A stretch of DNA of 64,000 bases from a virus (lineage: Duplodnaviria > Heunggongvirae > Uroviricota > Caudoviricetes). The stretch lies in IMG/VR virus record IMGVR_UViG_3300029288_000083, positions 30,130 to 94,129 of that record, one strand, 5' to 3'. Positions 1,704 to 60,097 of this stretch are shown in pieces. Under the pieces are notes generated by a model. That model ran no database searches and had not been told where the DNA came from. It worked only from the letters and a program-made list of their open reading frames with translations. The position numbers and the translations under genes were made by a program. The first letter of the stretch is position 1; each line of letters begins with the position of its first letter.

Positions 1704-1753
1704 TTTTTTATTTTTAAAATCAAATATACAACATTAATTATGCAATAGCAAAT

Positions 1754-2743
1754 TTAAAGCATTAAAAGTTTTTTATTTGCGTTAACTTTTATTGTTTCAT
1801 ATTCATCTTGCTTATAAACGATATCCATATAATATAATTGTCCTGTTGGCGGTGGAACTTTACAGTTGCAATCAACAGTATTACGAATACGCACCTCAGA
1901 ACATGGATTTACTGTATCTGCTGCTTTTGCTAAATCTTTTACAATATCATCACCTACTGATGCGTGAAATGCACTTTTGCTTGTCGTTTTAATCACATGT
2001 CCAATGTTAGGATTTATTGTTGCAGCAGGTCTGAACTTAATATCGGGATGCTGTACTGCAGATCTTGCAACATCCGCCAAATCGAATAGTTCATCTTTAA
2101 AATTCGATATAACATCGTCAGCTTCTTTAGAAACCTTAAAATCATTCCATGTAGCATTTCCTTTTGATAATACAGCAACAGTTCTTGGCGCAATAAAATA
2201 CGATGATGTATAGTATTCTTTGTTTACGCCAGTATACTTATAGTTTTGTTCAAATTGAACAAGAATACTACTATCTGTCCTTGTGTTTTTTGCATACTTT
2301 CCTGTTGGCGATATTACTTTTCCAATATGGCCAGCTTCACATCCTGTTAATCTAAATGGTGATTTTGATTTCGGAACAGCAAGTCGCATGCCAAAACAAT
2401 TGTTCCACCATTTTTGGGCTTCAGTATGTAATACAACAACATTGTCACCTATAACCGGGTCGCGTTTTTCGATGTGAAAGAAGCTTTCATCTTTAATTAC
2501 GATTTCTTTTATGTGTATAGGAATATGATAAACAGTATTGCCATACATTGTTTTTGCTGCTTCGCTACACGATTGAATCGGAGTTAATGTGCATTGGTTT
2601 TGACCTTCGGCTGTTTTAAAATTGATGATTGCACAAGTAGCATTATTGTTTCTTGTTTCAATTTTAATATCGGTGCATTCTACAAATGTGTTATAAAACC
2701 TGTGATAGTAAGATTCGCCAACTTTTAATAATGTTTCTCTCAT
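1754..2743 (-). CDS. hypothetical protein (329 aa)
   Basis: Long ORF with compact spacing. I looked for RNA-ligase KxDG/KxHG motifs and found none. Confidence 0.4.
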   Translation of the reverse strand: MRETLLKVGESYYHRFYNTFVECTDIKIETRNNNATCAIINFKTAEGQNQCTLTPIQSCSEAAKTMYGNTVYHIPIHIKEIVIKDESFFHIEKRDPVIGDNVVVLHTEAQKWWNNCFGMRLAVPKSKSPFRLTGCEAGHIGKVISPTGKYAKNTRTDSSILVQFEQNYKYTGVNKEYYTSSYFIAPRTVAVLSKGNATWNDFKVSKEADDVISNFKDELFDLADVARSAVQHPDIKFRPAATINPNIGHVIKTTSKSAFHASVGDDIVKDLAKAADTVNPCSEVRIRNTVDCNCKVPPPTGQLYYMDIVYKQDEYETIKVNANKKLLML

Positions 2744-2771
2744 GATTAAAAGTTAAAAATAAAGTTACTGC

Positions 2772-3113
2772 TTAAGCAGTAACTTCTTCGCCAAATAATT
2801 CTTTATATAAAGCTTGTGCTTTTGTTAATCGACGTTCAGCAAGTGTGATATCGTCTTCTGCATCAAGAATTGCATTTGCGTTTAAAGGCAATTTTCTTTT
2901 TGCTGCATCAACTTTGTCATACAATGTATCAAGATTATCTTCAAGATCATTGATTTGTTTTTTCAAATTGATTTTTGAATTTCTTGCTTCTGCAAGCAAA
3001 TTGATTTTTGCGCCATTTTCTGAAGCATCGTTCAAATTCTTTACAAATTGACAGTTTTCATCAATTTTAATTGTGCGCTCACGTTTTCTTGTTTCTTGGT
3101 TTTCTGTTGACAT
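2772..3113 (-). CDS. coiled-coil hypothetical protein
   Basis: Charged sequence with heptad-like repeats (LEDNLDTLYDKVDAAKRKL). Confidence 0.35.
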   Translation of the reverse strand: MSTENQETRKRERTIKIDENCQFVKNLNDASENGAKINLLAEARNSKINLKKQINDLEDNLDTLYDKVDAAKRKLPLNANAILDAEDDITLAERRLTKAQALYKELFGEEVTA

Positions 3114-3192
3114 AACTTTTAGTTTTTTAAGATTATTATTTAGATTTATTGTTTATTATATACATTAGAATTCATTAGTTTTAATTGCAAAT

Positions 3193-3513
3193 TTATTTTA
3201 TGTATTCACCTGCATTATATGATTGTGCTAATGCATTACCTTCTGCAGTATTTCCCATAAGAGTAAGTACTTCACCGTTTGCATCTTTCAAGATTATTGA
3301 AGAATACGTGTTTTCAGTTTCTTTTGCGACAGCAACAACAAGAATCGGTGGCGTTAACTCTATATAAGATTCTACATGCGTTGCAGTTTCCTTTGTTTCA
3401 ACAACTGTTGTTGTTTCGGTTTTTGTTTCTTGGTCTGCGGATTTACAATTACGAGGAGAGCATGACTGAAATACTATAGCACATCCAGTCAAAATTAGAA
3501 ATACTTTTTTCAT
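3193..3513 (-). CDS. putative lipoprotein
   Basis: Signal peptide with lipobox-like 'LILTGCAIVF...SCSP'. Thr/Glu-rich mature part. Confidence 0.45.
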   Translation of the reverse strand: MKKVFLILTGCAIVFQSCSPRNCKSADQETKTETTTVVETKETATHVESYIELTPPILVVAVAKETENTYSSIILKDANGEVLTLMGNTAEGNALAQSYNAGEYIK

Positions 3514-3564
3514 TTATCAATTTATTAATTATTTGTATATTATATACAGAACAAGTAAAAAGTT

Positions 3565-6348: not shown

Positions 6349-6826
6349 TCAAATAATTTTAAAAGTTTTTGTTTCCATTACAGGCCACCAATATTTACCG
6401 CCATTGTAACCTTTATCTTCTGGCCATTTTTGTTCATAATACTCTGGTAGTTTTTCGATTAATCTTGCTCGATGCGCTCTATGAAAATTTTCGTTTCCTA
6501 ACCACCAAGGCATATCAATCGGTGCCATACCAATGTTCCCATGATTCAAGTCTTGTATAAATTCTGGTGTCCATTCAAAAAAAAAGTGGCATTGTATTTT
6601 TATAGCCTCTTGATGTCCATTCCTTTATTGTAAAATCATGATACACTTTTAATGCATCGATGCATCCTTCCCATGCTTTAACAGCAGGATGGTTTTGCCA
6701 ACTTACTTTATTGCCTTCAAGTACATTAATGATTTGTTTATTTTCAATTCTTTGTTTTCCTAATCTGCGATAATCTAAAGCAGCAACGGATTCAATAAAA
6801 GACGGATATGGTAAAAATGTTTGCAT
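6349..6826 (-). pseudogene. denV-like pyrimidine-dimer DNA glycosylase (Pyr_excise family), frameshifted into two ORFs
   Basis: ORF 6575..6826 (…LDYRRLGKQRIENKQIINVL…WQNHPAVKAWEG…) and ORF 6349..6549 (…PWWLGNENFHRAHRARLIEKLPEYY) resemble the N- and C-terminal parts of endonuclease-V/denV-like proteins. They are separated at an A9 homopolymer (6583-6591). Confidence 0.45.
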
Positions 6827-6992: not shown

Positions 6993-8291
6993 TTAATTTG
7001 CGATTTCAATAATGTATTTTACTGTTACTTGAGCAGCATCATAAACAATGAATTCATCATTTCTTAAATCGGCGCCGCCATGAGCATATACAGAATCAAA
7101 TCCTTCACGTGCAAGTTTTTGTTTGTTCAATGTGTAGCAATCAGAATTGTGATGTGTTATATTTTTTTGATTACCTACATGAAAATCAAATAATGCAAGA
7201 TATGCAGAACTTGATGACCCGCCTGACCAACATGCACCACGAAGAGATGTATAGCCAATTGATTTTTGAGCTTTATTTGCACCGTAAATACCATCGCCAA
7301 ACATTGAACCCGTATGAACCGCACCAGATGGACGAATTAATAAACCTGATTGTAAAATGTTGAACCAGTTTTCATTTCGTGAACCATGCCAAAATAATTC
7401 GCATTTTTTATCTTTTGCATTTGCAACATATGCATCAAACTTTTCTTGTGTTTTTCTGTTTGTAACACGGAATGCAGAACGGAATTGATTTGCATTCGGT
7501 CCCATCATTTTTTTGATGATTTCGATTTCTTGCGCATTTGCTTCAACCGCCTCAAGTCCAAGTGTTTGCAACATGTCCATAGATTTCTTATGGCCTTCAG
7601 CATCAGGTTTATTTGCTTTCGCTTGTTCTTTTTGCTTGCGAAGTAATTCAACTTGACCTGCCATTGTATCAAGAACCGCTTGTTCATCAGCCATCAATTT
7701 ATGAGCGCGTTTTGTATCAGCGTCAGATTTGAAACTTGATAATAAATGGTCTCGTACATTTGACATTTTACGAGGAATGATTGAATAAAGTTTCAATAAG
7801 TTATTATTGATACCTTCAAGATGCGCAGATTTCTCTGTTAGAATTTTTGAAAGTGTATCAATAATTTTTTGAGCTTCATCAACCATAGCTTGGGTTACTT
7901 CACTTTGCGTAACCGTATAGTTTTCTTGTACCGTCTTTTTAGCATAAGCCATCAATTTGTCGAATAATGCTTTAACTGCACGATTTTGAATTTCCGCTTG
8001 TGTGACAGTTTCACCATTTGCTTCAGCATCAGCAGTTACTTCCGCAATTGCTTCTTTGAACAAATGTGTCATATCCTCATAGCCTTTTTTTGTTTTGCTG
8101 CGGTAAATTTTATCCCACTCATGCGCAGAATATTCGTGTGTAACTTCGGTACCTTTAATACGTCCGTATTGCACGATAAAATTACCTGATGCTTGTTCGA
8201 ACATATTGTAATACTTGTTGTTATTATCTGCGGTAACGCAAACTAATTTAACAACTTTTTTTCCTGGAACTGTATAATCTTTTAATTGCAT
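6993..8291 (-). CDS. poly(ADP-ribose) polymerase-like protein (WGR domain + PARP catalytic domain)
   Basis: N-terminal WGR-like segment (YYNMFEQASGNFIVQYGRIKG). The C-terminus has PARP catalytic signatures in order: 'FWHGSRNENWFNILQSGLLI' (His-Gly-Ser), 'GSMFGDGIYGANKAQKSIGYTS' (Tyr) and 'NDEFIVYDAAQVTVKYIIEI' (catalytic Glu, cf. PARP1 '[20 protein letters not shown]'). Confidence 0.8.
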   Translation of the reverse strand: MQLKDYTVPGKKVVKLVCVTADNNNKYYNMFEQASGNFIVQYGRIKGTEVTHEYSAHEWDKIYRSKTKKGYEDMTHLFKEAIAEVTADAEANGETVTQAEIQNRAVKALFDKLMAYAKKTVQENYTVTQSEVTQAMVDEAQKIIDTLSKILTEKSAHLEGINNNLLKLYSIIPRKMSNVRDHLLSSFKSDADTKRAHKLMADEQAVLDTMAGQVELLRKQKEQAKANKPDAEGHKKSMDMLQTLGLEAVEANAQEIEIIKKMMGPNANQFRSAFRVTNRKTQEKFDAYVANAKDKKCELFWHGSRNENWFNILQSGLLIRPSGAVHTGSMFGDGIYGANKAQKSIGYTSLRGACWSGGSSSSAYLALFDFHVGNQKNITHHNSDCYTLNKQKLAREGFDSVYAHGGADLRNDEFIVYDAAQVTVKYIIEIAN

Positions 8292-17452: not shown

Positions 17453-18015
17453 TCTGTATTTTTTAATTCGTCTTCAATCAATTTTGCAATTTCAATAGCA
17501 GTATCTCGGTCTGCATCTAAATCCTTGAATTTTATGTTATTCTCAATTAATAAATTTCTTATGATAACTGATAACTCATTACTTTCTTCTTCTGTTTGAT
17601 TACGTCCGTTTGGATTGTAGTCTTTTGTTCTATTAAGAAAAATATTTAATGTCCAATACAAACCGTCTGCTGCAATTACAACTTTTTCTAACGCATCATT
17701 AAAAATTGTTTGTTTCGGATTATCGTTTGTGTTGTATAAACGATTATAAACAGTATTTAATAAAATAGGACTGTCTGTTATCACAACTTCAACTTTACCG
17801 TTTACTCTAAAAATCCTGTGGTGCTGTTTTCCTAACAAATATAATTGGTCTGTCATTGTGTGATGACGTTTCTCCCATACCAATTCTTTTGCAAATTCAG
17901 GAACCATTTCAGAATCAATTTTATCCCACTTTAATGCAGCAAAAGTTTCTGCCATTAATGTTGATTTGCCTGTTCCTGGTGCACCATATAAATTTACGAT
18001 TAATGTCTTTTTCAT
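17446..18015 (-). CDS. P-loop NTPase/kinase-like protein
   Basis: Walker A 'LYGAPGTGKSTL' at the N-terminus. Confidence 0.5.
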   Translation of the reverse strand: MKKTLIVNLYGAPGTGKSTLMAETFAALKWDKIDSEMVPEFAKELVWEKRHHTMTDQLYLLGKQHHRIFRVNGKVEVVITDSPILLNTVYNRLYNTNDNPKQTIFNDALEKVVIAADGLYWTLNIFLNRTKDYNPNGRNQTEEESNELSVIIRNLLIENNIKFKDLDADRDTAIEIAKLIEDELKNTEC

Positions 18016-18018
18016 ATT

Positions 18019-18567
18019 TTAAAAATTAACGTAATAACCGTATTTCTTGTTGCCATAAATTAATTTCAATGATGGATAACGTTCAGTCATGTTTTCGATT
18101 GTTAAATCATCTTGAATATGAATTTCGTGTGTATTGCCGTATGCAATACCTTGTACATAAGAATATGGAACAGCAACTAAACATTTTTGACCTTTTGAAT
18201 TCATTTCATCAATAATTCTTGTTGCATCTTCAATTGTTAAGTGTTCAAGAATGTCACCAAAAATTAAAAATTCGTATTCTGAAAAATCGAAATCAACAAT
18301 GTTAGAATGCGTCACCTTATTATAAATTTCAGATAACTTGTATTTGATAATGTATTTTTCAAACACTTCACAAGCATCAAGTTTATAAGGTGCAAGTAAT
18401 TTCGCGTACGTTCCTTTTCCTGGACCAACGTCTAGAATTTTAGTAATGTTATTTTTTTCAAACGTGTCAATTAAATATTCCTTGACTTGTTTTTTGTATG
18501 ATCCGTAACTTTGCGGCATATTAAAAAATTTAAAGATTAATGTATAACTATTAATTATTATATACAT
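18019..18567 (-). CDS. class I SAM-dependent methyltransferase
   Basis: Motif I 'ILDVGPGKGTYA' and motif 'FLIFGDILEHL'. Confidence 0.6.
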   Translation of the reverse strand: MYIIINSYTLIFKFFNMPQSYGSYKKQVKEYLIDTFEKNNITKILDVGPGKGTYAKLLAPYKLDACEVFEKYIIKYKLSEIYNKVTHSNIVDFDFSEYEFLIFGDILEHLTIEDATRIIDEMNSKGQKCLVAVPYSYVQGIAYGNTHEIHIQDDLTIENMTERYPSLKLIYGNKKYGYYVNF

Positions 18568-18586
18568 TACTAAACTATAGTTTTTG

Positions 18587-18667
18587 TAACCCCTGAGAGA
18601 CTCGAACTCTCACGTCTTTCGACACCGCATCCTAAGTGCGGCGCGTCTACCATTCCGCCAAGGGGCC
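18587..18667 (-). tRNA. tRNA, class II (tentative Leu-TAG)
   Basis: T-arm 'gagagactcgaactctc'. Anticodon arm ccgca/tcctaag/tgcgg. Confidence 0.6.
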
Positions 18668-18816
18668 ATTAGTTAAACAATTCGATTCCTCGATTTTCCC
18701 AGTTCGACCTGGGCCGTTGCATTGCTTGACCTATGCTTTACATTTGTTCCGTCAAGAACAAACAGCTTTAGTCCGAGGAGAAAGCGGCCACTCCGTTCTA
18801 CCTTTTGAATTGTTTG

Positions 18817-18897
18817 TGACCATGAGAGGACTCGAACCTCCACCCCTTTCGGGAGATGCTTCTTAGACACCCGCGTATACCATTCCGCCACATGGCC
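18817..18897 (-). tRNA. tRNA (class II, anticodon unresolved)
   Basis: T-arm 'gaggactcgaacctc'. Acceptor gaccatg/catggcc. Confidence 0.55.
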
Positions 18898-18908
18898 ATT
18901 TTATGTTG

Positions 18909-18980
18909 CTGTCCTTTCAAGATTCGAACTTGAACTACCTGAGTCAAAGTCAGGTGTGTTAACCATTACACTAAAGGACA
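18909..18980 (-). tRNA. tRNA (tentative Gln-TTG)
   Basis: Perfect acceptor tgtcctt/aaggaca. T-arm tcaag/attcgaa/cttga. Anticodon loop CTTTGAC. Confidence 0.65.
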
Positions 18981-18985
18981 ATATG

Positions 18986-19072
18986 TAGCTCAGGTCGGAG
19001 TCGAACCGACACGGACATTTCTGTCCAAAGGATTTTAAGTCCTTCGCGTACTACCAATTTCGCCACTGAGCC
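18986..19072 (-). tRNA. tRNA, class II (tentative Leu-TAA)
   Basis: T-arm gtcgg/agtcgaa/ccgac. Anticodon arm aagga/ttttaag/tcctt. Long variable arm. Confidence 0.6.
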
Positions 19073-19077
19073 AAATG

Positions 19078-19160
19078 TAGCCGGAACGGGACTCGAACCC
19101 GTACGCCCGATGGGCACCGCCTTTTAAGGACGGCGTGTCTACCAGTTCCACCATCCGGCC
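19078..19160 (-). tRNA. tRNA, class II
   Basis: T-arm acggg/actcgaa/cccgt. Acceptor gccggaa/atccggc. Confidence 0.55.
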
Positions 19161-19171
19161 ATTTGTACTTG

Positions 19172-19242
19172 TTGTCCATCAAGGATTCGAACCTTGAAAT
19201 TCAGCTCCAAAAACTGACGTGTTACCATTACACCAATGGACA
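19172..19242 (-). tRNA. tRNA
   Basis: T-arm caagg/attcgaa/ccttg. Acceptor tgtccat/atggaca. Confidence 0.6.
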
Positions 19243-19252
19243 ATATTTTAGA

Positions 19253-19322
19253 TGCCCGTTAAGGATTCGAACCTTAAACGACAGAATCAAAATCTGTAGT
19301 GTTACCGTTACACCAACGGGCA
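19253..19322 (-). tRNA. tRNA (tentative Gln-TTG, second copy)
   Basis: Acceptor tgcccgt/acgggca. Anticodon arm acaga/atcaaaa/tctgt. Confidence 0.6.
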
Positions 19323-19384
19323 ATTTATTTTCAAATATAAACCATTATGAAATGAATAGCAATGGTTTATGAATTAATTTAAAC

Positions 19385-19418
19385 TAAAAAAGCTCGGTCA
19401 ATTTGATTTGACCGAGCT
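19385..19418 (-). terminator. rho-independent terminator
   Basis: 10-bp stem gctcggtcaa/ttgaccgagc preceded by A6 on plus. Confidence 0.5.
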
Positions 19419-19672
19419 CTAAGTATTATAAGATAAATGAAAGTTTACATAATACAGAATCGGCCACAACTTCGTAGTTGTAGTAATTGCAATTGCTGTA
19501 ATAATATGTTAACTGAATTTTTCATTTTAATTTATTCTTTATTGATTTGAATTATTTTATAATTATATACACGAGTTTTAAATAGTTTCAAATTATTTTT
19601 ACCTTTGTGAATTAAATTATTTTTATTATATATTCACGAAGTTTAAAAAGTTTTACACAATTTTAATATTCT

Positions 19673-20341
19673 TTATAAATGTTTAAATCCTGTTTCATCT
19701 AACCAAGTTTTTAAATTTGGTATGCTAGTTCCGTTATAATCTGTACGTGTTGAAAACATGCCAGCGCCATGAGCAGTCATATCTATAATTTTGTTATTCT
19801 TTGTTAAGACTGTCATCCAAATGTTATTCGATAAACTCGGTGTCTCTCCGTGTTTTCGCATAAATGGTTCGTATAATGTGTATGCACCTATTGTGTATGA
19901 TTTGTTACTGATATCTAGCATAAAACTTGTGGACAATATTTTTTCTACTTCTTTCGGCATATTCTTATGCGATTCCGGAATCTCCAATACTTCTGCTAAA
20001 CGTTTTCCCATTTCTAATGGGTTATCGCGTTTATTACATTGAAGACAACCTCTGCTTCCTCTTCTATCTATAGAATAACTAATAAATATTTGGTCATATT
20101 GAATATTGAATCCTATTTCGTTTATTCTATCTTTATCACTGTAAAGAACATCACCTTCTGCATCTATACCAACGTATTGTAATTTCGGAACAGCAGTGGC
20201 CATTACACTTAACACAAAATCAATTGAATCATCTGTTAAATTAAATCTATTCTTATTATGAACAAAGAAGTTCTTTGCTTCGTCAAACGCGCCAGCGCTT
20301 TCGTTCAAGAAATCGTCAAACATGGGTATTCGGTTTTTCAT
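19673..20341 (-). CDS. paralog family member 1 (N-terminal 'IPMFDDFLNES' motif)
   Basis: Shares its N-terminal motif with three tandem neighbours. Confidence 0.45.
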   Translation of the reverse strand: MKNRIPMFDDFLNESAGAFDEAKNFFVHNKNRFNLTDDSIDFVLSVMATAVPKLQYVGIDAEGDVLYSDKDRINEIGFNIQYDQIFISYSIDRRGSRGCLQCNKRDNPLEMGKRLAEVLEIPESHKNMPKEVEKILSTSFMLDISNKSYTIGAYTLYEPFMRKHGETPSLSNNIWMTVLTKNNKIIDMTAHGAGMFSTRTDYNGTSIPNLKTWLDETGFKHL

Positions 20342-20718
20342 ATACTTTGAATTATTTTTATATTAGGTTCGGTTAATAATATCTGATAACCTAACCGTTC
20401 ACTCTCTTTGTTGAATTGCAAACCAAGATTCATTAAGAATTCCTCAAATTCATTAGATTTTGAGGAATCTTCAATATCAACATTTACATATGTTTTCCAA
20501 TCAGATACAAATTGAAAAGGTTTATTTCTGAATTTTTCACCTAACTTATTTGCAATCATTTCGGCAGCTGCAGCAATTTCACTTGATGGCCGTTCAACAG
20601 AATCAATAGTATTTAGTCCGCTTTGCTTTTTTATGTCGTCGCCCATGGATGTAAACAATCTATCGTATCCAAAAGTTGTAGTTACAAATTCGTTAAGTGT
20701 TGGAATTCTTCTTTTCAT
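20338..20718 (-). CDS. paralog family member 2 (N-terminal 'IPTLNEFV')
   Basis: Shared N-terminal motif. 4-nt overlaps with neighbours. Confidence 0.4.
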   Translation of the reverse strand: MKRRIPTLNEFVTTTFGYDRLFTSMGDDIKKQSGLNTIDSVERPSSEIAAAAEMIANKLGEKFRNKPFQFVSDWKTYVNVDIEDSSKSNEFEEFLMNLGLQFNKESERLGYQILLTEPNIKIIQSI

Positions 20719-21788: not shown

Positions 21789-22247
21789 TTATACGTTAAT
21801 GTCATTGCTTTTGCTTGCATTGAATCTTGTTTGTTCTTCTTTTAATTTTCTTTTATATGTTGATTTACATATATTTATTATTTCATCAAGTGTTGTGTAT
21901 GTTCCTATCAATTCAAATTTATTATCTTTAATATAATCACTTATTGGAAAGCTTTCCCATTCATCTACATTAATGCCAAATCGTATTTCTTTTGTTGACA
22001 TATTAATAACAAACACAAATTCACCAACTTCTTTAAATTTTGCAATTGTTGGTTGAAATGAATAGTCCATTCGTACTGCACACCAAGGATTCGACGCTGT
22101 AAGTTTTGTGAATCTTATAAATTTTGCATGTAGCCCAGTTTTTAGCGCTGCTGCCATTGTTGGTCCAGTCTTGGGACACATTTCTTCAGGTGTCAATTTT
22201 TTTGATTCATTTATGAATTCGTCTAATGATAAAAATCTTTTTTCCAT
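21789..22247 (-). CDS. paralog family member 4 (N-terminal 'LSLDEFINESKKL')
   Basis: Shared N-terminal motif. Confidence 0.45.
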   Translation of the reverse strand: MEKRFLSLDEFINESKKLTPEEMCPKTGPTMAAALKTGLHAKFIRFTKLTASNPWCAVRMDYSFQPTIAKFKEVGEFVFVINMSTKEIRFGINVDEWESFPISDYIKDNKFELIGTYTTLDEIINICKSTYKRKLKEEQTRFNASKSNDINV

Positions 22248-24300: not shown

Positions 24301-24370
24301 TTATTTATTTATTAAAAACAAATATACAACATTATAAAGGCAATAGCAATATATATGCTATTTATTTTCG

Positions 24371-33387: not shown

Positions 33388-33882
33388 TTATAAATTCATA
33401 TTAATAATTGTTTGTGTTACTCGATTTATGTGTTCAGTTTCCTCTTCTTCTGTATATCGTTGATTACTGCCTGTTAATTCAAAATAACGATTTGGGTCAT
33501 AATCACGACAATGCGATAAATAACTATTGTGAGCATTTTTAATTTTCAAACCAATTTCTTGAACAGAAATTTCGCGAATACTAATTAAAGATGATTCGTA
33601 CGAATTTGTTCCGTACGTTTGTTCTTCAGATATTAAAATGTATTGTTTATTGCAATACGGACATTTATATATCATGTCATGCGAATTGGGTACACGATAC
33701 CAGCCGGTTTTACCGTAATAATAATCGCGTTTATTTGGAAGGATTTTTGTGCAGGTACAAGAATCTGAGTTTTCTTTCCTGAATAATTTTGAAATTTTAG
33801 TTGAGATATTTTCGCTAATCGAATACACCCGAATAAGGTGTTGTGACGTTGGATTTATTTCTTTAAAGATCATATCAATCAA
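33388..33882 (-). CDS. hypothetical Cys-containing protein
   Basis: ORF. 'CPYCNKQY' zinc-ribbon-like. Confidence 0.3.
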   Translation of the reverse strand: MIDMIFKEINPTSQHLIRVYSISENISTKISKLFRKENSDSCTCTKILPNKRDYYYGKTGWYRVPNSHDMIYKCPYCNKQYILISEEQTYGTNSYESSLISIREISVQEIGLKIKNAHNSYLSHCRDYDPNRYFELTGSNQRYTEEEETEHINRVTQTIINMNL

Positions 33883-39096: not shown

Positions 39097-39106
39097 ATAA
39101 AATTTG

Positions 39107-40647: not shown

Positions 40648-41295
40648 TTATTCAAATTTCATTTTTCTTCCTTTATTCCATCCTTCCGGAATTGATTCAT
40701 CTTTCTTTATTTTTTTGTTTTGTTTTAAAGAAATGTTATGAATCCACATAAAACCAAATTGCGAATTTTTTTCACCTGCGTGTTTCCCACACGCAGATAA
40801 TCTCATTTTTTCTTTTGTTTCTTCACTATGTTTAGTTCCAGTTTTATCTGGTACTTTTATTTTTCCTTCGTTATGTAATTTTACTATAGTATTACGCATT
40901 CTATTAGAACATTCTTTCATATATTCGGTATCAGTTTCCATTTTACGTTTATGAACCAATCCACCGGCAATTGAACGTATTCGTTGATTTTCAACAGAAA
41001 TAAATCCGCCTTCGCCGTCAGGTCGTAAATTCATACACATACAATCGGTTTGCCATAATGATGAAATTAATTCCTTTTCTCTAATCTTCAATGAACATCT
41101 ATCAGGAAGAAACTCTAAAATTTCCTTTTTAAAATTTTCAATGCCATGTTTGCGAATTGCATTCCATAAATATTTTCCTGAACCCATATATCCATCATCT
41201 AAGTTAAATGTAGAATGCATGCCTATATAGTATTTTTCATTTATAAGATTTGTTATCTTATAAATGTAATGAATCGTGTACTGTTTCCTTGGCAT
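40648..41295 (-). CDS. GIY-YIG homing endonuclease
   Basis: 'YIYKITNLINEKYYIGMHS' (GIY-YIG). C-terminal 'WIHNISLKQNKKIKKDESIPEGWNKGRKMKFE' is paralogous to 25229..25984. Confidence 0.7.
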   Translation of the reverse strand: MPRKQYTIHYIYKITNLINEKYYIGMHSTFNLDDGYMGSGKYLWNAIRKHGIENFKKEILEFLPDRCSLKIREKELISSLWQTDCMCMNLRPDGEGGFISVENQRIRSIAGGLVHKRKMETDTEYMKECSNRMRNTIVKLHNEGKIKVPDKTGTKHSEETKEKMRLSACGKHAGEKNSQFGFMWIHNISLKQNKKIKKDESIPEGWNKGRKMKFE

Positions 41296-41756: not shown

Positions 41757-42528
41757 TTAGAAAGGCAACATTTTGTTTTTATTGAGACTTGCCTACCGAT
41801 AACTCAAATATATTTTTAAAAATTACTGTCCAATGATGGTTAATTGGATTCCACGCGTCGATTAGCGTTTCAATGAATTAGATTTTAACCGGTGTTAAAA
41901 ATCGAGATTGACTCTGCATTACTCAATTTGTCTTTGGTCATGACTCCTAAACAATTTGCTCCCTCAAATAAACCTTTATTCATTTCCCGTATTAATTTAC
42001 ATCCTTTAACTTGTTTAGTATCATCCACAATACTTGTACTTCAATTGTACTTTGGGGCTCGAACCCAAATTCAATCTTTTGTTTTAATCAGTTACATCAT
42101 CCACAAATGTTTATACCACGTTTTCATGAGTATGGTATATGGGGTATGATCCCATTTGCGCCTTTCAAACAATCAATTTTAGTCAAATTATCTCAATTAA
42201 TCAAAGCATTATAATTATGCTTCAGTAATTTTTTGATTTTGATTTATGCCTTAGCGATTAAGCCCGGATTTATCACCAAAATCATTTTTATTTTTCCAAT
42301 ATTTTAAAGAACTCGTTTTTAATATTTGTTTTATCAAATATGTATATACAAATATAAACCATTTAATAAGAAATAGCAAATTTTTATGAATTTATTTTGT
42401 ATTTTATTTGCATTTATTTTTTTATTTCAATATGTAAATGAACAATTAATTAAAATCAAATATACAACTTTTTAATGTAATAGCAATAGTTTTGTCATTT
42501 ATTTTCAAAATATTTTAGCCATATAAAA

Positions 42529-42565
42529 TAAAAAAATCCGGAAGATTTGCATCAACCGGATTCAT
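42529..42565 (-). terminator. rho-independent terminator-like hairpin
   Basis: aaaaaaatccgg…ccggattc. Confidence 0.4.
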
Positions 42566-42866
42566 TATTGTGAAAAAGAATTATTCATTTATACACATAA
42601 GAGTTTCGGTTGAAAAGATTGTTTCCAATCCTCAATAAAATTGGAATTAAATTCCACATTAATATTTCCGAAAAATGTTCTCATGACTGTTTGTTTAAAT
42701 GTTTTATTTTATTTTATATATCAAAGTAAAAATTTGAATTATTTAAAAATTATATACACAAGTTTTAAATAGTTTCATTTGTTTTAAAATTATTTGAAAA
42801 GTTTTATTTTTTATGTTTCAGTAATTAAAAACAATTTTAATATACACAAGTTTTAAATAGTTTCAA

Positions 42867-43460
42867 TTATTTATAAAGTTCTTTATCTAGCATGTATGAC
42901 AGAACTGGTAATGGCACTTGCGAAAGTACATCTTGATATTTTTTCAATTTGAAGAAGTCGCGTGCTTTTGTTGAAGAAGTTTCTTCAATTACGTTTGCTT
43001 TACCTAAATATATGTTAGGAGACTTTACATACCATTGTTTATCAATAACAGGCTGAATTCCTGTTCGCGATATCACAATAAATTTTGCATGTTCTTTTAG
43101 ATATGCGCTTTGGTAAAATGTATCGAAATTATTTGCAACATCTTGTCCCATGATAAAGTAAAAATCAATATCAGGATATTCAGATTTTAACGCTGCAAAT
43201 AAATCTCGTGTATAACCTGACAGCTGCATTCTTAATTCAATATCATTAACTATGATTCGAGGATCTTCATCGTTCAATGCAGCTTGAATCATTTCGATTC
43301 TATTTTCATAAGCTGTAAGATTTTTGCCTTGCTTATGCGTATTGCATGGAATAACCCAAATTTCATCGACATGGGTTTCTTTAAGAACATGATTTGCAAT
43401 AAAAATATGTCCACGTGTTATTGGGTCAAATGAACCTCCAAGTATTCCTACTGTTTTCAT
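42867..43460 (-). CDS. nadD: nicotinate/nicotinamide mononucleotide adenylyltransferase (NadD-like)
   Basis: 'VGILGGSFDPITRGHIFIANHV' (GxFxPxHxGH). Length 197 aa, typical of NadD. Confidence 0.7.
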   Translation of the reverse strand: MKTVGILGGSFDPITRGHIFIANHVLKETHVDEIWVIPCNTHKQGKNLTAYENRIEMIQAALNDEDPRIIVNDIELRMQLSGYTRDLFAALKSEYPDIDFYFIMGQDVANNFDTFYQSAYLKEHAKFIVISRTGIQPVIDKQWYVKSPNIYLGKANVIEETSSTKARDFFKLKKYQDVLSQVPLPVLSYMLDKELYK

Positions 43461-44127
43461 AATGTGAATTTTTAATTTGAAACAAATATAAACTATTTAA
43501 TAAGCAATAGCAACTAAAATGCTAATTATTTTTAACATTAAATGAACTTTTTATTTTACTGTAGTTGTCAATATAAAGTTTATTAAAGTTCATCTATAGA
43601 TATTCTAAAATCATTAGAAATACAATAGTATTCAGTTGTTTAAAAATAATTTTCAAAATTTGAAACTATTTCTAAAATGTGAATATAATAATTACTCAAT
43701 TTACGGAAAGGGTAATATAGAAAGATAGATACACTAAGGTAGTTCTAGGATTCTTTTAGCAATTCCATGTTATAAATCTATTAAATAGTAATTGTCTCAT
43801 TTGGAATTAAGTGATTCATCCAATTTATTAAACTATAAGGATTGTCTAGTGTTGTTGTATCAACATTCATTATCGCATTAAAATTACCTTTTTTAAACTG
43901 GTCATCTAATGTTTTTGACTTTTGCATTTTCTGTTATAATTAAAGAACCTCCTATATAATAAGTGTTAACATTAATGTAAATGTATTTTGCTTTATATCT
44001 AGTTCATTAAATTCTAATACTAGTGTACTTAATAAAATAGAAATAAGTATAATAGTTCCGATAACTCTTTTACAGGATATATCATTATCGGAACTAAACA
44101 TTGATTTTAAAAACTTCTTTATCATAT

Positions 44128-55062: not shown

Positions 55063-55800
55063 TTAATTGTCAAGTCCAGGTGTCGTTTTTGGGTGACGAG
55101 TTCCTGTTCTTGTTTTATTTATATATTCTTCTACCATTTGTTTAAATGCGGGTACCGTTTGGTCGACATCTTTTAATATGTCTTCATGAACAATCGGAGT
55201 TTCATTTATTTCTTTATTTGTAACTTCGTCGCCTGTGTTCATGTCTGTTGTTTCAACAACTTCCGCTATTGAATCAGTTTCTTTTGTTTCATCAGACAAT
55301 GTTTCAGAGACTTGATTTGTTTGTGTGGTTTGTATTTGTTCAATTGGTTTCGTATCACTGGCAGGCTTTATATAATCAACTAGCGCCTTTATAAATCCTA
55401 ATGCAACAATAGGAAGTACCGCACCACTCACAATTGCCAAAATTCTTTTTTGTTCAATTGCGTCCATGTCTTGTAGACCGAATAATTGAATCCAACCAGT
55501 AAAATCGTGTAAATGAGCAAATGCATAAAACGTATTTCCCATTATTTGCATAGCAGTTAATACTAAGAATAATGACCATACGATAAATTTATTCATTTTA
55601 TCTAATACGATAATTGATGCTAATGACGCAGCTGCACCTACTTCGAATGCAATTGCTAATGTTGTGGCCATTGTTGGATTATTACTCAATCCGAAGAATT
55701 GAATAACGTGTACCATTGATATGACACTGACTAAAATGTATAATGATACGAATGAAAAAATAATGAAGTAGTGAAGTAATTTATTTTTACTTGTTTTCAT
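55063..55800 (-). CDS. multi-pass membrane protein
   Basis: At least 5 hydrophobic helices in the N-terminal 160 aa. Acidic C-terminal tail. Confidence 0.4.
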   Translation of the reverse strand: MKTSKNKLLHYFIIFSFVSLYILVSVISMVHVIQFFGLSNNPTMATTLAIAFEVGAAASLASIIVLDKMNKFIVWSLFLVLTAMQIMGNTFYAFAHLHDFTGWIQLFGLQDMDAIEQKRILAIVSGAVLPIVALGFIKALVDYIKPASDTKPIEQIQTTQTNQVSETLSDETKETDSIAEVVETTDMNTGDEVTNKEINETPIVHEDILKDVDQTVPAFKQMVEEYINKTRTGTRHPKTTPGLDN

Positions 55801-56895: not shown

Positions 56896-57636
56896 TTATT
56901 TTTGTATATATTCTTTATAAAATATGCCGACAAGGTAAAGAAAGCAATTTAAGTATACATCCATTTCATTTGCATGAACAATGTATTTTTGGCATCCTTC
57001 GGGCGTTGCAATCCAAATAGCAGCGTAATCTGGTTTCTTTTTGTACAATTCAAAATACGCTTGCGCATATGCAGCAGCTTGTATTTTGTACTTTACAAGT
57101 TTTCTTTGGTAATCAGTTACAATTTTAGTTGATGTTTTATAATCACCAACTACAAGTTTTCCTTCGTTATCATAATAGATAATATCAGTACGTCCTGCGT
57201 ATTTGTATTTTGGTGAGACCATTAATCCTTCAATCATTACAGGTTTTGCAAACTCTGTAATAAAATCAGATTGATAAATGTTATAAAAGAAATTTCTACC
57301 TAATTCAAAAAATTTCTTATCGACATCTGGAAATAATGTAGGTGTTTTTTGTTGCGTATATAATAAAGCATCATCAGGGGATTTGCCCATCTTTAAAGCA
57401 ACCGCATAATTTTCAAGGTATGAATGCATAACGGAACCTCTATCGGCGCCACGTCTTGAAACGTATTCCCATACTTCAGGCGATAAATTTCCTTTTAATT
57501 CAGCAACTTCTAAATCTTCTAATTTAGAAAGTATAGTTGTTACCGATGGATATTTTGCTCGCTTTTCTCCAAATTCTATTTCGTAGAATCCTTCAGAATT
57601 TCTGTTGCCTTTTAAAATAGCACGTTCCATACCCAT
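56896..57636 (-). CDS. PD-(D/E)xK nuclease (RecB/exonuclease-like)
   Basis: 'YKYAGRTDIIYYDNEGKLVVGDYKTS' (D…D-x-K core). Conserved Tyr/Gln tail. Confidence 0.5.
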   Translation of the reverse strand: MGMERAILKGNRNSEGFYEIEFGEKRAKYPSVTTILSKLEDLEVAELKGNLSPEVWEYVSRRGADRGSVMHSYLENYAVALKMGKSPDDALLYTQQKTPTLFPDVDKKFFELGRNFFYNIYQSDFITEFAKPVMIEGLMVSPKYKYAGRTDIIYYDNEGKLVVGDYKTSTKIVTDYQRKLVKYKIQAAAYAQAYFELYKKKPDYAAIWIATPEGCQKYIVHANEMDVYLNCFLYLVGIFYKEYIQK

Positions 57637-58067
57637 GATAAACCTGATAAAATTGTGGAAATTTTAATTAAGCAGGTTATCAAAATACCTAGTATGAACA
57701 TTATACGTAAAAAGTAAAGAACTGTAAATTCTTTAAACAAGGGTGAGTAAACAATAAGGTAAGATCTGTCAGTTTTCTTTTCAATTGCAGGAAACATTAT
57801 TTCATGCAAATCCAATGTTTTTAAGTATTTGTTTATTGGACTTAACATTTCCAATAAACGAGTTCGGCGCACGATTTCTTCTTCGCCCACATCTTCTTTA
57901 CGTAGATTAAGCACTGTGAATATTCGTCCAACCCAGTCAACACGCAGTCCAAAGGACTGCCATGTTGGTGTGTTTTTATTTTTTCTTGCAGTTCGTTTGA
58001 TATAAAAAAAGTTTATAACTTCACGTGTTGCAAGGTAGAGTCTATATTCTCTAATTGATTTTTTCAT
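57612..58067 (-). CDS. hypothetical protein with C-terminal TM segment
   Basis: ORF only. Confidence 0.3.
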   Translation of the reverse strand: MKKSIREYRLYLATREVINFFYIKRTARKNKNTPTWQSFGLRVDWVGRIFTVLNLRKEDVGEEEIVRRTRLLEMLSPINKYLKTLDLHEIMFPAIEKKTDRSYLIVYSPLFKEFTVLYFLRIMFILGILITCLIKISTILSGLSWVWNVLF

Positions 58068-58715
58068 TTATCTGTATTTTTGGTCCTCAGCAAATAATTG
58101 AACCAATTCAGGTTCATTTGTTACAAGAATTTTTCGTATCAAATCTTTTCCACGAAAAACTTTATTCTTTGCGCTGTTTTCAGGAATGCTCATTTCTTCT
58201 GCAATTGTTTTGTAAGGTTTTTTATCAACATGCCATTTAATCAATGCAGTTTTAATGATTCCTTCTTTTCCAGAATCTTTCAAACCGTTTATTGCATCAA
58301 TAGTTTTGTTGTAAAGTACTTCGACCACATCATATTTTGGTTTTGTGTCGAATTCATCAAAATCAGAATCAATTGATATTGCGCTTTCATTAACAGTGCC
58401 TTCCTCAAACATTCTGTCTAAAGATTTTGTTCTGTTTGTGTGTCTTTTTGCAAGCAAGCATTCGTTGTATGCAATTCTGTAAATCCAGGTAGAGAAAGCA
58501 GCAGCTCCAGGATTATATTGGTCGATGTTTTGCCACACTTTTGCAAACACGATGTTTACAATTTCTTGACGTGATTCAGGATCCGTTTCAATAGTTGCAA
58601 TTTTTTTAAGAACACCTGGTTTTAAACGGTTCATTAAAATTTTGAATCGTTTTTCAGATTTTGTTTCAATAAATGCATTTGCAAGATCTTGAATTTGAGA
58701 TTTAGGTTGTGCCAT
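58068..58715 (-). CDS. sigma-70 family RNA polymerase sigma factor
   Basis: Region-2-like 'NIVFAKVWQNIDQYNPGAAAFSTWIYRIAYNECLLAKR'. Region-4-like HTH 'YKTIAEEMSIPENSAKNKVFRGKDLIRK'. Confidence 0.6.
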   Translation of the reverse strand: MAQPKSQIQDLANAFIETKSEKRFKILMNRLKPGVLKKIATIETDPESRQEIVNIVFAKVWQNIDQYNPGAAAFSTWIYRIAYNECLLAKRHTNRTKSLDRMFEEGTVNESAISIDSDFDEFDTKPKYDVVEVLYNKTIDAINGLKDSGKEGIIKTALIKWHVDKKPYKTIAEEMSIPENSAKNKVFRGKDLIRKILVTNEPELVQLFAEDQKYR

Positions 58716-58959
58716 AATTTTAGTTTATTTTAAGTGACGTTTAGATTAATATTTAAAAACAAATATACAACATTTATTCATCAATAGCAATTATTTATGA
58801 ATTTATTTTGTAAATTTATTCCTTCAGTTCTTTAAGTTATTGTATGATTAATTAATTAAAATCAAATATACAACATTAATGAAGCAATAGCAAATTTTTA
58901 TGATAGATTTTTGAAACATTGGTTACTTTTTTCACCAATGTTTCAAATCATATCATTTA

Positions 58960-59265
58960 TTATTTCGTTTCTGCTTCAGGTGTAACAAGTTTCACGTGGT
59001 CTTTAACGCCTGCGAAAATGTTTGCAACTTCATCGTATGGATAATTTCCCAATACACCGATGATTGTGTTAATTTCCTTTTCAGTCATTACTTCTTTACC
59101 AATTAAAGGCATAACACCAGCAACTTGTGAAAAAGGTTTTGTTCCGAATAAGTTTCTTACTGCGCCTGAAAATTCTTTTGATACTGTGAATTGGTTTTCA
59201 ACTGCTTGTTCAACTGTTTCAACAACTTTTGCATCTGTAATTTCTGTGTTTTTTGTTTTAGACAT
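58960..59265 (-). CDS. hypothetical protein
   Basis: ORF only. Confidence 0.3.
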   Translation of the reverse strand: MSKTKNTEITDAKVVETVEQAVENQFTVSKEFSGAVRNLFGTKPFSQVAGVMPLIGKEVMTEKEINTIIGVLGNYPYDEVANIFAGVKDHVKLVTPEAETK

Positions 59266-59269
59266 AACT

Positions 59270-59836
59270 TTATATTTTGTTTTTGTTTGTTAATACTTTT
59301 ATTAAATTTGGTAATATGTTTTCTGTTTGTAACGATATCTTCATATCCCAAGGCATTCCCCATTGTTCCCAATTTTCAAAATCAATTTCATCAGATACCC
59401 ATCGTCTGTTTGAATCATCGTGTTTATCGCCTCTTCCATTTATTCTACTAACACGAAGTTGTATCGAGGTTTCAATATATATTATGATAAAATTTTCACG
59501 TGGCATTATATCTAAATATTTTTGCAATCCTCTTGGCGTTAATAATAATACATCAGCAGCATTAAAATCTTCATGTGTTAAACCGTAGTACCAGCCATTA
59601 AAATTATCAACTTCTACGAATGATCCTAATTTAATGTTATCTTCAAATTGTTCTTTAGAAACAAATCGGTAATCAACATTTTGTTTTTCGTAATCTCGCA
59701 TTGGACGAGATGTTGTACTTAATTGCCCTTTAAACCCAAATTTCTCTAGTTCCATTGCAATTGTTGACTTACCTGAACAACTTTTTCCTACTAATACTAT
59801 TTTTTTATCCATGTACTTAACTGTTTTGTAAAACAA
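59270..59836 (-). CDS. guanylate kinase-like nucleoside monophosphate kinase
   Basis: P-loop 'VGKSCSGKST'. 'STTSRPMRDYEKQNVDYRFVSKEQFE…GWYYGL' matches GMK signature regions. Confidence 0.65.
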   Translation of the reverse strand: MFYKTVKYMDKKIVLVGKSCSGKSTIAMELEKFGFKGQLSTTSRPMRDYEKQNVDYRFVSKEQFEDNIKLGSFVEVDNFNGWYYGLTHEDFNAADVLLLTPRGLQKYLDIMPRENFIIIYIETSIQLRVSRINGRGDKHDDSNRRWVSDEIDFENWEQWGMPWDMKISLQTENILPNLIKVLTNKNKI

Positions 59837-59854
59837 TTATTATATACAAGACTT

Positions 59855-60097
59855 TTAAATAGTTTCATGGTTTTTGCCATCGCTTTTTCTTAAAGCAAGA
59901 TCTTTGTTTGATGAACGTATGCCTGGTTCGAAATATGGAGTTTGCGATTTGAATTGAGACCGCATATACGCAATTATTTTGTCACCAGGTGCAGGTAAAA
60001 CTGCTGTTTCTGGTGCAGGATAATCGCTTGTTTCAATTTTTGATTCCTCAGTGTTTCCTTTAAGATAATCTTCGTAATTTATACTACTGTTTTCCAT
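59855..60097 (-). CDS. hypothetical small protein
   Basis: ORF only. Confidence 0.25.
   Translation of the reverse strand: MENSSINYEDYLKGNTEESKIETSDYPAPETAVLPAPGDKIIAYMRSQFKSQTPYFEPGIRSSNKDLALRKSDGKNHETI

Follow-up and report, generated by a model that had tools for sequence, protein, structure and literature searches.

The DNA analysed here, called the window throughout, is a 64,000-nucleotide stretch of a Caudoviricetes genome (positions 30,130 to 94,129 of the IMG/VR virus record IMGVR_UViG_3300029288_000083), with 33% G+C and with genes that lie almost exclusively on the minus strand. It holds a tRNA array, all on the minus strand, between 16458 and 41755 (50 genes according to ARAGORN and 52 according to Rfam, whose matches within the window are tRNAs only), together with genes for homing endonucleases, NAD and nucleotide enzymes, tail-fibre-like proteins and an RNA polymerase sigma factor. 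The regions between these genes carry three families of recurrent motifs, C1, C2 and C3, which are the subject of this report. Identical copies of the window's sigma protein occur on contigs of up to 425,361 bp; the window and a further 4.7 kb reached via the contig L019 were examined, which amounts to ~15% of a genome of ~425 kb. The 425-kb source contig has been labelled by NCBI as a 'Candidatus Pacearchaeota archaeon' metagenome-assembled genome (MAG). Because it encodes a tail sheath, tail fibres, the tRNA array and homing endonucleases, it is evidently a misbinned huge phage, and its binning therefore carries no host information.

The initial annotation had described two motif families between 1720 and 59870, with about 17 copies of class 1 (here C1) and about 12 copies of class 2 (here C2). 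Both are present where it had placed them, far above chance, and the span fits the first C2 site (1711-1777) and the last C1 site (59829-59870). The C2 16-mer AAATCAAATATACAAC has six exact matches on the plus strand and two with one mismatch, and a 67-nt weight matrix built from these copies retrieved 12 sites, all on the minus strand, at 36.6-72.9 bits, compared with no hits in 30 dinucleotide shuffles (best score 4.8 bits). The C1 29-mer has six matches at ≤3 mismatches, with 0 expected; its 42-nt matrix gave 20 minus-strand copies and one plus-strand copy at 22.6-47.1 bits, whereas the shuffles averaged 0.2 hits and peaked at 17.8 bits. Sixteen of these copies score ≥34.8 bits, close to the earlier estimate. 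An unseeded 8-mer test of the non-coding DNA, read in gene orientation, ranked words of the same two families at the top, namely GCTATTGC, TATATTTG and GTTGTATA from C2 and TGTATATA, GTATATAA and GAAACTAT from C1, with counts close to zero for their reverse complements. The two-class scheme was incomplete, however, in that it missed the third family, C3.

C2 has the consensus aAAAATAAAT..ATAAA..a-TTGCTATTGC-N9-TGtTGTATATTTGaTTtTAA, which can also be written aAAAATAAAT-N-(T)TTGCTATTGC-N9-tGTTGTATATTTG. The sigma-A consensus of Bacteroidota consists of a -33 TTTG and a -7 TAnnTTTG element, the latter revised to TAHHTTTG, with the numbering T-12, A-11, T-8, T-7, T-6 and G-5 (PMC6847099). The word TATATTTG, invariant in all 12 copies of C2, satisfies both versions of the -7 element. 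TTG is likewise present in every copy (as TTTG in three), and the gap from TTG to TA is 20 nt in 11 copies and 19 nt in the one at 42447-42513; if the last G of TATATTTG is set at -5, the G of the first TTG falls at -33. The earlier likening of this class to Bacteroidetes sigmaA promoters is thus borne out in both sequence and geometry, and C2 is best read as a strong promoter for the host housekeeping sigma factor. Behind C2 sites lie the gene run from the sigma factor through orf151 to an exonuclease, the NadD- and NMNAT-like enzymes, a PNKP-like kinase/phosphatase unit and several tRNA clusters.

This assignment presupposes a Bacteroidota host, which is probably correct judging from the scarcity of Shine-Dalgarno sites, a sorting domain and a host-like flotillin. 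A Shine-Dalgarno-like core precedes only 2 of 69 genes, and the leaders are A-rich, with a peak at -11 to -14; the same situation has been described for the phylum Bacteroidota (PMC6847099). One window protein carries Por_Secre_tail, the C-terminal sorting domain of the type IX secretion system (T9SS), at 28.6 bits against a cut-off of 27, and of the 80 best cellular flotillin homologues, 53-59% identical to the phage protein, nearly all come from Bacteroidota. (The flotillin/NfeD pair is encoded at 31205-33386.) The GenBank phages nearest by sigma factor are the Prevotella Lak megaphages and other huge phages, although at only 24-27% sigma identity; Lak phages and genomes over 634 kb have been assigned to Bacteroidetes hosts (PMC7162821). 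With a host from elsewhere, C2 might be an ordinary sigma-70 promoter (TTGCTA/TTGACA-N17-TATATT) and C1 (TTGAAA-N18-TATAAT) a second host-type promoter. Such a reading can draw on the form that C2 takes in related phages and on the resemblance of C1 to sigma-70 promoters, both described below, as well as on the archaeal label of the contig. It runs counter to the host evidence just given and to the invariance in the window of the full TATATTTG, beyond TATATT, and we regard it as highly improbable. A generic sigma-70 scan of the window gave no enrichment over shuffles.

C1 reads tGAAACTAtTtAAaa.Tt.TGTATATAAt, or tGAAACTaTTt-N9-t.TGTATATAAt, in a single spacing register in all copies. AAACT is near-invariant across the 21 window copies and five orthologous sites, and in the orthologous guanylate kinase (GMK) promoter, aligned over five loci, the AAACTATTT block and TG.ATA.AA do not vary. 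Promoters of the extracytoplasmic function (ECF) sigma factors of Bacillus subtilis have the -35 element tGAAACnTTTt and the -10 element CGTA or CGTC, and ECF spacers measure 14-17 bp (PMC5758882). The upstream half of C1, tGAAACnaTTt, is the same word as this -35 element and carries its AAC motif. The genes behind C1 encode guanylate kinase, YqeY, a 2H-like phosphodiesterase, a phosphatase unit that includes NADAR and RNase HII, a PARP unit, DenV and flotillin/NfeD.

A candidate reader of C1 is encoded at 58068-58715. The initial annotation had called this gene a sigma factor, and its domains, its match to TIGR02937 and its full-length alignment with PDB structures define it further as ECF-type. 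The protein, of 215 residues, matches Sigma70_r2 at 42.4 bits and r4_2 at 21.9 bits, the latter below its own cut-off; against TIGR02937, which covers the ECF superfamily, it scores 44.2 bits (cut-off 42.9), and its best partial matches are to SigW/RpoE models. Its alignment with the PDB structures of AlgU, SigW and sigma-E covers the full length. The domain-4 helix KNKVFRGK, the counterpart of RSRIFRAR in AlgU, does not vary among ten relatives, and neither does the AAACTATTT block of the GMK promoter in its five loci. Given that the ECF -35 consensus recurs in the upstream half of C1, the phage sigma is a reasonable reader of C1, and its recognition of that motif is a plausible prediction. 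The adjoining orf151 encodes a protein of 151 residues with a C-terminal transmembrane helix and an AlphaFold (AF2) model with a predicted local distance difference test score (pLDDT) of 91; it has no sequence match in Pfam, NCBIfam or the PDB, and no fold match in the PDB at E ≤ 0.001. From its position alone, it could be a partner of the sigma factor or an anti-sigma factor.

The third motif, C3 (GAATATATAAATAAAA; tGA(A)TATATAAaTAAAA), recurs in intergenic regions that have neither C1 nor C2. Its strict core, GAA?TATATA, has 17 minus-strand and two plus-strand copies, compared with 3.5 and 2.2 in shuffles (maximum 9), and in non-coding DNA the heptamer TATATAA is found at 28 minus-strand but only two plus-strand positions. 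Thirteen of the 17 minus-strand cores sit 10-33 nt 5' of a start codon or of tRNA-Pro. The information content is about zero upstream of tGA, so that C3 has no -35-like block; an A-rich stretch follows TATATAA. The base before TATATAA is G in 16 of 17 aligned C1 copies (the exception being the hybrid at 19617-19658) and A in 14 of 14 copies of C3. The motif precedes the tail-fibre-like orf442, orf211 and orf180, the GH19 gene and homing endonucleases of at least four unrelated families (DUF559/Vsr-like, GIY-YIG, HNH and endonuclease-I-like), each with its own C3 copy 10-20 nt 5' of it. This diversity of families argues that C3 is not part of one mobile cassette. The homing-endonuclease-like genes interleaved with the tRNA genes are those at 23279-23971, 25229-25984, 26489-27067, 38104-38766, 39350-40006 and 40648-41295.

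The gene lists that had been drawn up for the first two classes need correction at three points. PNK, NMNAT, NadD and the sigma factor do have C2 sites upstream, but the homing endonucleases once listed with them are preceded by C3 instead, and the RNase HII gene (11727-12341) lies upstream of the C2 site at 11679-11745 rather than downstream of it. Similarly, C1 precedes GMK, the 2H gene and PARP but not the endolysin: the GH19 endolysin-like gene, on the plus strand at 14652-15266, is served by a C3 on its own strand, and the neighbouring minus-strand C1 does not face it. Here the minus C1 (14591-14632) and the plus C3 (14630-14638) overlap divergently within 14590-14652; the gene ends in a terminator-like hairpin at 15251-15278.

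The motifs recur at orthologous positions in six related phage contigs, whose sigma factors are 58-73% identical to that of the window in the alignment (59-74% by BLASTP). Among these relatives the flanks diverge while the class of site stays the same: C1 precedes GMK in 5 of 5 loci, and the sigma gene has its C2, and the orf183 orthologue its C3, in 7 of 7 each. The tandem C2 pair before the sigma gene is kept in the relatives, where its -7 block is TATATT(TG) and its -33 block, unlike that of the window, is TTGACATT; in the alignment of the proximal sigma promoter, TTG..ATT and TATATT are invariant in seven loci. The C3 sites before the two genes downstream of the tail sheath are conserved, as are those before the orf183, orf527 and orf442 orthologues, and C3 precedes genes adjoining the tail sheath in L019, L013 and L016.

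More distant phages do not carry these motifs. The 40-kb regions of LR756500 and Lak-C1, with sigma factors 24-27% identical, showed no motif enrichment, and the IMG/VR contig L194 (IMGVR_UViG_3300010167_000012; sigma 40% identical) has none of C1, C2 and C3. The absence from more distant huge phages indicates that the motifs are lineage-specific consensus sequences. L194 has plus-strand repeats of its own between 3070 and 18522, each well over chance: TTGTTAGTAACTTT, with four copies, one of them just 5' of its sigma gene, and GGAATAGATAGTAAAG, with five. A megablast search of 18 kb against 50,697 phage records returned no match, and 267 kb of Bacteroidota chromosomal DNA, mostly coding and hence a weak test, held no C1 and no excess of C3. 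Exact-pattern scans of IMG/VR for C1 and C2 returned 12 single-copy hits, which were dismissed as chance since they share no proteins with the window save for one weak NADAR-like match; the C2 pattern also gave 86 single-copy hits in a scan of a metagenome collection that does not contain the source contig, none of which shared proteins or held further copies.

Pairwise identity between copies rises above background (0.28-0.30) only at about -50 to +20 for C2 and about -30 to +20 for C1, that is, over footprints of 45-70 nt. Since the similarity ends outside these footprints, C1 and C2 are compact sites rather than duplicated segments or cassettes. The copies are co-oriented with the genes and lie ~10-60 nt 5' of start codons or tRNAs, with median distances of 19-29 nt from the core. 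Transcriptional rather than translational signals are favoured, because one C2 copy ends 9 nt before the mature tRNA-Gln and one C3 copy lies 21 nt before tRNA-Pro. Just 5' of this C2 copy there is a strong terminator with a 13-bp stem (19420-19389), and the arrangement of terminator, promoter and tRNA fits a transcription start followed by a short leader. It might be argued that the motifs are instead sites of RNA processing or translation initiation, binding sites of a regulator, or remnants of duplicated or mobile cassettes. C3 does lie near start codons, at 10-23 nt, its A-rich 3' part overlaps the A-rich zone at -10 to -14 that marks Bacteroidota translation starts, a TAAAA ribosome-binding-like element has been mentioned (PMC2483708), and the intergenic regions are so short that each site is also near the end of the upstream gene. 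Yet tRNA genes stand directly behind C2 and C3, both the sequence and the spacing of C2 fit an established promoter consensus, C1 has two parts at a rigid spacing, the similarity ends at promoter-sized footprints, the endonucleases behind C3 are unrelated, and neither hairpins nor dyad symmetry were seen in the cores. We therefore consider a non-promoter role very unlikely.

Motif sites and associated genes in the window. Scores in bits are weight-matrix scores; regex, regular-expression match; distances are to the start codon or tRNA.
Feature	Coordinates	Strand	Context	Evidence
C1	59829..59870	-	before guanylate kinase gene 59270-59812	34.8 bits; orthologous site with invariant blocks, 5 loci
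C1	42827..42868	-	promoter hub	37.6 bits
C1	42739..42780	-	promoter hub	45.9 bits; exact match to the 29-mer of the initial annotation, 0 mismatches
C1	37274..37315	-	before YqeY-like gene 36853-37263	45.5 bits; Pfam YqeY
C1	35080..35121	-	first of two before orf65	43.4 bits
C1	34963..35004	-	22 nt before orf65 (34753-34950)	39.3 bits
C1	33896..33937	-	before orf161/NfeD-like/flotillin operon (33873-31205)	44.2 bits; Band_7, NfeD
C1	30988..31029	-	before 2H-phosphodiesterase-like gene (~30982-30560)	38.3 bits; weak tRNA_lig_CPD hit
C1	30131..30172	-	before orf156 (29650-30120)	39.6 bits
C1	29604..29645	-	before orf144 (29142-29576)	37.9 bits
Weak C1/hybrid	19617..19658	-	AAACT block with C3-type GAATATATAAT core	30.2 bits; C3 regex match 19627-19635
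C1	19552..19593	-	highest-scoring copy	47.1 bits
Weak C1	18547..18588	-	before methyltransferase-like open reading frame (ORF) (~18519-18019)	26.2 bits
Weak C1	14591..14632	-	facing orf67 (14386-14589), divergent from plus-strand endolysin-like gene	28.2 bits
C1	14348..14389	-	before phosphatase-like orf163, RNase HII further down the unit; AAACT inside hairpin	36.5 bits; DSPc
C1	8896..8937	-	before orf179 and PARP-like gene 6993-8291	38.3 bits; PARP
C1	6833..6874	-	before pyrimidine-dimer glycosylase gene 6575-6826	41.0 bits; Pyr_excise
Doubtful C1	5602..5643	-	within orf173	22.6 bits, lowest hit
C1	3529..3570	-	before orf106 (3193-3513)	42.4 bits
C1	3145..3186	-	before orf113 (2772-3113)	37.6 bits
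C1	43658..43699	+	sole plus-strand copy; no ORF downstream	31.6 bits
C2	58853..58919	-	distal of tandem pair before sigma gene	70.7 bits; TTGCTATT...TGTTGTATATTTG; pair kept in relatives
C2	58750..58816	-	proximal of tandem pair; core end 44 nt from sigma ATG	72.9 bits; 7-locus alignment
C2	43473..43539	-	before NadD/cytidylyltransferase-like gene 42867-43460; 22 nt to ATG	57.3 bits; Pfam CTP_transf_like
C2	42447..42513	-	promoter hub before tRNA array; 1-nt spacing variant	36.6 bits
C2	42339..42405	-	promoter hub before tRNA array	64.5 bits
C2	30507..30573	-	before small ORF 30169-30432	59.5 bits
C2	28159..28225	-	before orf103 (27822-28133) and tRNA-Ser/Cys/Ser/Ala/His cluster	70.4 bits; site-to-gene map
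C2	24309..24375	-	before orf67 (24097-24300) and tRNA-Arg	66.8 bits
C2	19322..19388	-	before tRNA-Gln/Leu cluster; TATATTTG ends 9 nt from mature tRNA 5' end	51.5 bits
C2	11679..11745	-	before orf109, orf92 and NMNAT-like orf344; overlaps RNase HII 3' end without driving it	68.3 bits; Pfam
C2	9587..9653	-	before orf210 (8922-9554)	68.2 bits
C2	1711..1777	-	before PNKP-like unit, kinase 1296-1703 to phosphatase 286-735	61.2 bits; AAA_33; HAD_PNKP
C3	56905..56913	-	33 nt before orf183, in 3' end of exonuclease gene	regex; (G/A)AATATATA kept in 7 loci
C3-like, ambiguous	55120..55128	-	inside orf245 coding sequence, 73 nt before orf287; conservation may reflect protein code	
C3	54171..54179	-	17 nt before orf527	regex; present at orthologous site in L017
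C3	52362..52370	-	16 nt before orf442 (tail-fibre/head-decoration-like)	regex; PHROG hits
C3	47054..47062	-	19 nt before orf397	regex
C3	45831..45839	-	22 nt before orf211, then tail-fibre-like orf180 and orf152	regex
C3	42715..42722	-	promoter hub	regex
C3	41314..41321	-	17 nt before GIY-YIG endonuclease gene	regex
C3	40018..40026	-	10 nt before endonuclease-I-like orf218	regex
C3	38787..38795	-	19 nt before endonuclease-I-like orf220	regex
C3	36842..36850	-	no nearby gene start	regex
C3 pattern, probably chance	33666..33673	-	within orf161	regex
C3-like variant GTAATATATAATAAAA	29098..29115	-		
C3	28569..28576	-	21 nt before tRNA-Pro	regex
C3	27085..27092	-	16 nt before HNH endonuclease gene	regex
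C3	25999..26006	-	13 nt before GIY-YIG-like orf251	regex
C3-like variant AAATATATAAATAAAA	23972..23991	-	before DUF559/Vsr-like orf230	
C3	22264..22272	-	15 nt before orf152 (21789-22247)	regex
C3	14630..14638	+	13 nt before GH19 endolysin-like gene 14652-15266, only solid plus-strand gene	regex
ECF-type (group IV) sigma gene	58068..58715	-	candidate reader of C1, possibly C3	Pfam, TIGR02937, PDB alignment
orf151, conserved tail-anchored membrane protein	57612..58067	-	ATG right after sigma stop codon	

All three classes meet in one place, a 530-bp promoter hub ahead of the tRNA array (42339-42868) with the order C1, C1, C3, C2, C2. Should the classes differ in timing, the hub would therefore sustain tRNA expression through all phases of infection. 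About 590 nt of unannotated DNA, with a tRNA-like T-arm fragment, GGGTTCGAGCCCC, separate the hub from the first tRNA. The plus-strand C1 at 43658-43699 points into the 3' end of a 15-kb minus-strand gene run or operon, and could give rise to an antisense or interfering transcript.

Taken together, we lean towards a model, which we think has a somewhat better than even chance of being right, in which a Bacteroidota phage of roughly 425 kb steers the host RNA polymerase throughout infection by three promoter codes, C2 for the host, C1 for the phage sigma and C3 for late genes. The host sigma-A polymerase would fire C2 through its -33 TTG, its -7 TAnnTTTG and an A-rich upstream block; as no phage protein is needed for this, C2 is taken to be early. 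Its products would be the tRNA clusters, the NAD and nucleotide enzymes, the PNKP-like unit and, from the tandem copies, the ECF-type sigma factor. The latter would then redirect the polymerase to C1, with domain 4 on the GAAACT block and domain 2 on TGTATATAA, and thereby switch on further accessory genes in a second wave (GMK, YqeY, the PARP unit, DenV and flotillin/NfeD). C3, a TATA box with no -35 element, would serve tail-fibre-like, endolysin-like and homing-endonuclease genes, and it may be read by the same sigma factor without the -35 contact or by a further factor encoded beyond the window.

Several points weigh against this model. We infer the reader of C1 and C3, and the temporal order of the classes, from the sequence, and the remaining ~85% of the genome could hold genes for other sigma factors, activators or an RNA polymerase. 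The downstream core of C1, TGTATATAA, contains GTA preceded by T rather than C and so is not the ECF CGT(A/C), and the distance from GAAAC to GTA is 14 nt, compared with 17 nt in TGAAAC-N16-CGTA. C1 can also be read as the sigma-70-like TGAAAC-N17-TATAAT; the generic scan reports it as TTGAAA-N18-TATAAT with 11 of 12 positions matched, and the best minus-strand sigma-70 matches are C1 sites. In the relatives, C2 is also readable as TTGACA-N17-TATATT, which fits canonical sigma-70 as well. The sigma gene stands behind two tandem C2 sites and no C1, which is not the autoregulation typical of ECF factors; among the sigma loci of the relatives, only L017 has a weak, overlapping C1-like match (18.9 bits). 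Finally, C3 is short and AT-rich, two of its sites lie within coding sequence, and a relaxed weight matrix drifted to A-rich background with 10.7 hits per shuffle and was dropped in favour of the strict core.

Alternatively, the phage sigma may read C3, or C3 and C1 both, rather than C1 alone, or C1 may represent a sigma appropriation akin to that at T4 middle promoters, in which host sigma-A sits on the TATA-like -10 element and a phage activator bound to GAAACT substitutes for the -33 element. C1 and C3 have the TATATAA core in common, and in both a G stands one to three bases 5' of it; the sites at 19617-19658, on the plus strand at 43658-43699 and in the L013 GMK promoter (TGAATATAA) are hybrids; and CGT, normal in ECF -10 elements (PMC5758882), is missing from C1. 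A sigma factor with domains 2 and 4 would, however, be expected on a bipartite promoter, whereas C3 is unconserved upstream of its core. As for appropriation, the cores of C1 and C3 miss three nearly invariant positions of the host -7 element, T-7, T-6 and G-5 (PMC6847099), which makes host sigma-A a poor fit to either motif, and the scan of window proteins revealed no MotA- or AsiA-like protein. We consider these variants unlikely, if worth keeping in mind.

The readers of C1, C3 or both might also be encoded outside the window, be it as a second sigma factor (gp55-like, with a gp33-like co-activator) or as a phage RNA polymerase, in which case the sigma factor at 58068-58715 would have other targets. 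The modest share of the genome covered here leaves room for such genes, the architecture of C3 is that of T4 late promoters (PMC2988020), and several sigma-like factors are common in jumbo phages that lack a polymerase of their own (PMC7824862). On the other hand, the scan of window proteins turned up no gene of this kind, the sigma factor that is present suits the ECF-like -35 half of C1, and in every relative the sigma gene is conserved along with the C1 motif. An out-of-window reader thus seems distinctly unlikely to us, and we continue to favour the ECF-type sigma of the window as the reader of C1.

A bolder version of the favoured model would have the phage run a three-tier programme with no polymerase of its own, combining an ECF-derived sigma factor with a TTGAAAC-N17-TATAAT code, in which an ECF -35 is joined to a sigma-70-like -10 and which the divergent host sigma-ABfr is unable to read, T4-like late TATA boxes, and orf151 (57612-58067) as an anti-sigma factor of new fold that keeps the sigma in check. 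We deem this conjunction doubtful; if true, it would yield a new family of anti-sigma factors and, for the engineering of Bacteroidota, an orthogonal sigma/promoter pair.

Other features of the window and its relatives deserve brief mention. Two Rfam tRNA matches are 127-129 nt long (36500-36626 and 16545-16673) and may hold an insert or intron, and three ARAGORN calls (24370-24453, 34382-34453 and 39106-39174) have abnormal anticodon loops. An RNA-repair and ADP-ribose toolkit comprises the PNKP-like kinase and phosphatase (286-1703), the PARP-like gene (6993-8291), RNase HII (11727-12341) and a NADAR-like glycosidase (12895-13458). L019 and L020 are two assemblies of one phage, identical up to orf442 and then diverging (locus ~17700-20650): past orf442, one has a gene for 751 aa and the other has genes for 396 and 401 aa, which suggests variation of a tail-fibre cassette within the population. 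The 8-mer ATCGAATT is enriched (6 observed, 0.41 expected) and belongs to no motif class. Long gaps in the gene map, such as 13459-13849 and 16103-16457, resemble unannotated coding sequence.

Our search of the literature found no paper on the promoters of huge Bacteroidota phages of the Lak/Mahaphage-type group. Three sharply defined, conserved consensus sequences and a candidate sigma factor make transcription units, and probable temporal classes as well, predictable across an uncultivated 425-kb genome, and the predictions extend to the expression of ~50 tRNA genes and of homing endonucleases. They should be useful for annotating and perhaps engineering Bacteroidota phages, and they offer compact, strong candidate promoters, possibly with an orthogonal sigma/promoter pair, for Bacteroidota genetics.

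Compared with sigma-ABfr promoters of Bacteroidota, C2 has the same -33 TTG and -7 box, AT-rich spacer and upstream blocks, and a co-oriented location close 5' of genes and tRNAs. Yet it is far more tightly conserved, over ~70 nt, and has extra elements: a second TTG lying 6 nt 3' of the first, a TTG immediately next to the -7 box and a AAAATAAAT block near -50. C1 shares with ECF promoters (those of sigma-W/M/X/V in B. subtilis, sigma-E in Escherichia coli and AlgU in Pseudomonas aeruginosa) the -35 word, the rigid spacing, the close adherence to consensus and an ECF-type sigma encoded nearby; it differs in the core, the spacing and the missing autoregulation noted above. Unlike the ECF systems, too, the window has no recognizable anti-sigma factor, and the regulon would be one of phage development rather than of stress.

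Late promoters of the T4 type are read by gp55 with gp33 and the sliding clamp. The T4 late promoter has its 8-bp TATA box roughly one helical turn before the start, with an AT-rich segment next to the box on the downstream side (PMC2988020). C3 resembles it, in form only, as a -10-only TATA box with AT-rich DNA downstream, placed before tail-fibre, lysis and homing-endonuclease genes, and 4 of 14 C3 copies contain TATAAATA. The G(A)A prefix lies outside the T4 box, however, the phage is not T4-like by the proteins examined, and no homologues of gp55, gp33 or gp45 were found among the window ORFs scanned, which represent ~15% of the genome.

Promoters of the phiEco32 sigma factor gp36 have an AATGTA element (PMC12276001). 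The core of C1 contains TGTA, and several copies read AATGTATA. By analogy, the window appears to follow the same logic as phiEco32, from a host-type promoter to a phage sigma factor with N- and C-terminal domains and on to phage-specific promoters, but the host phylum and the sigma lineage differ, C1 has a strong -35-like block, and no gp79-like partner was identified. In the Bacillus phage SPO1, the host polymerase is re-targeted stepwise, by host sigma-A and then by phage sigma factors for the middle and late genes (PMC13401047). A stepwise re-targeting of the host polymerase by a phage-encoded sigma factor would be common to both phages, whereas the window shows a single phage sigma and its consensus sequences are different. 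The overall logic is familiar from phage gene control of the phiEco32, SPO1 and T4 type and is unsurprising to specialists; here it appears in a poorly studied group of phages.

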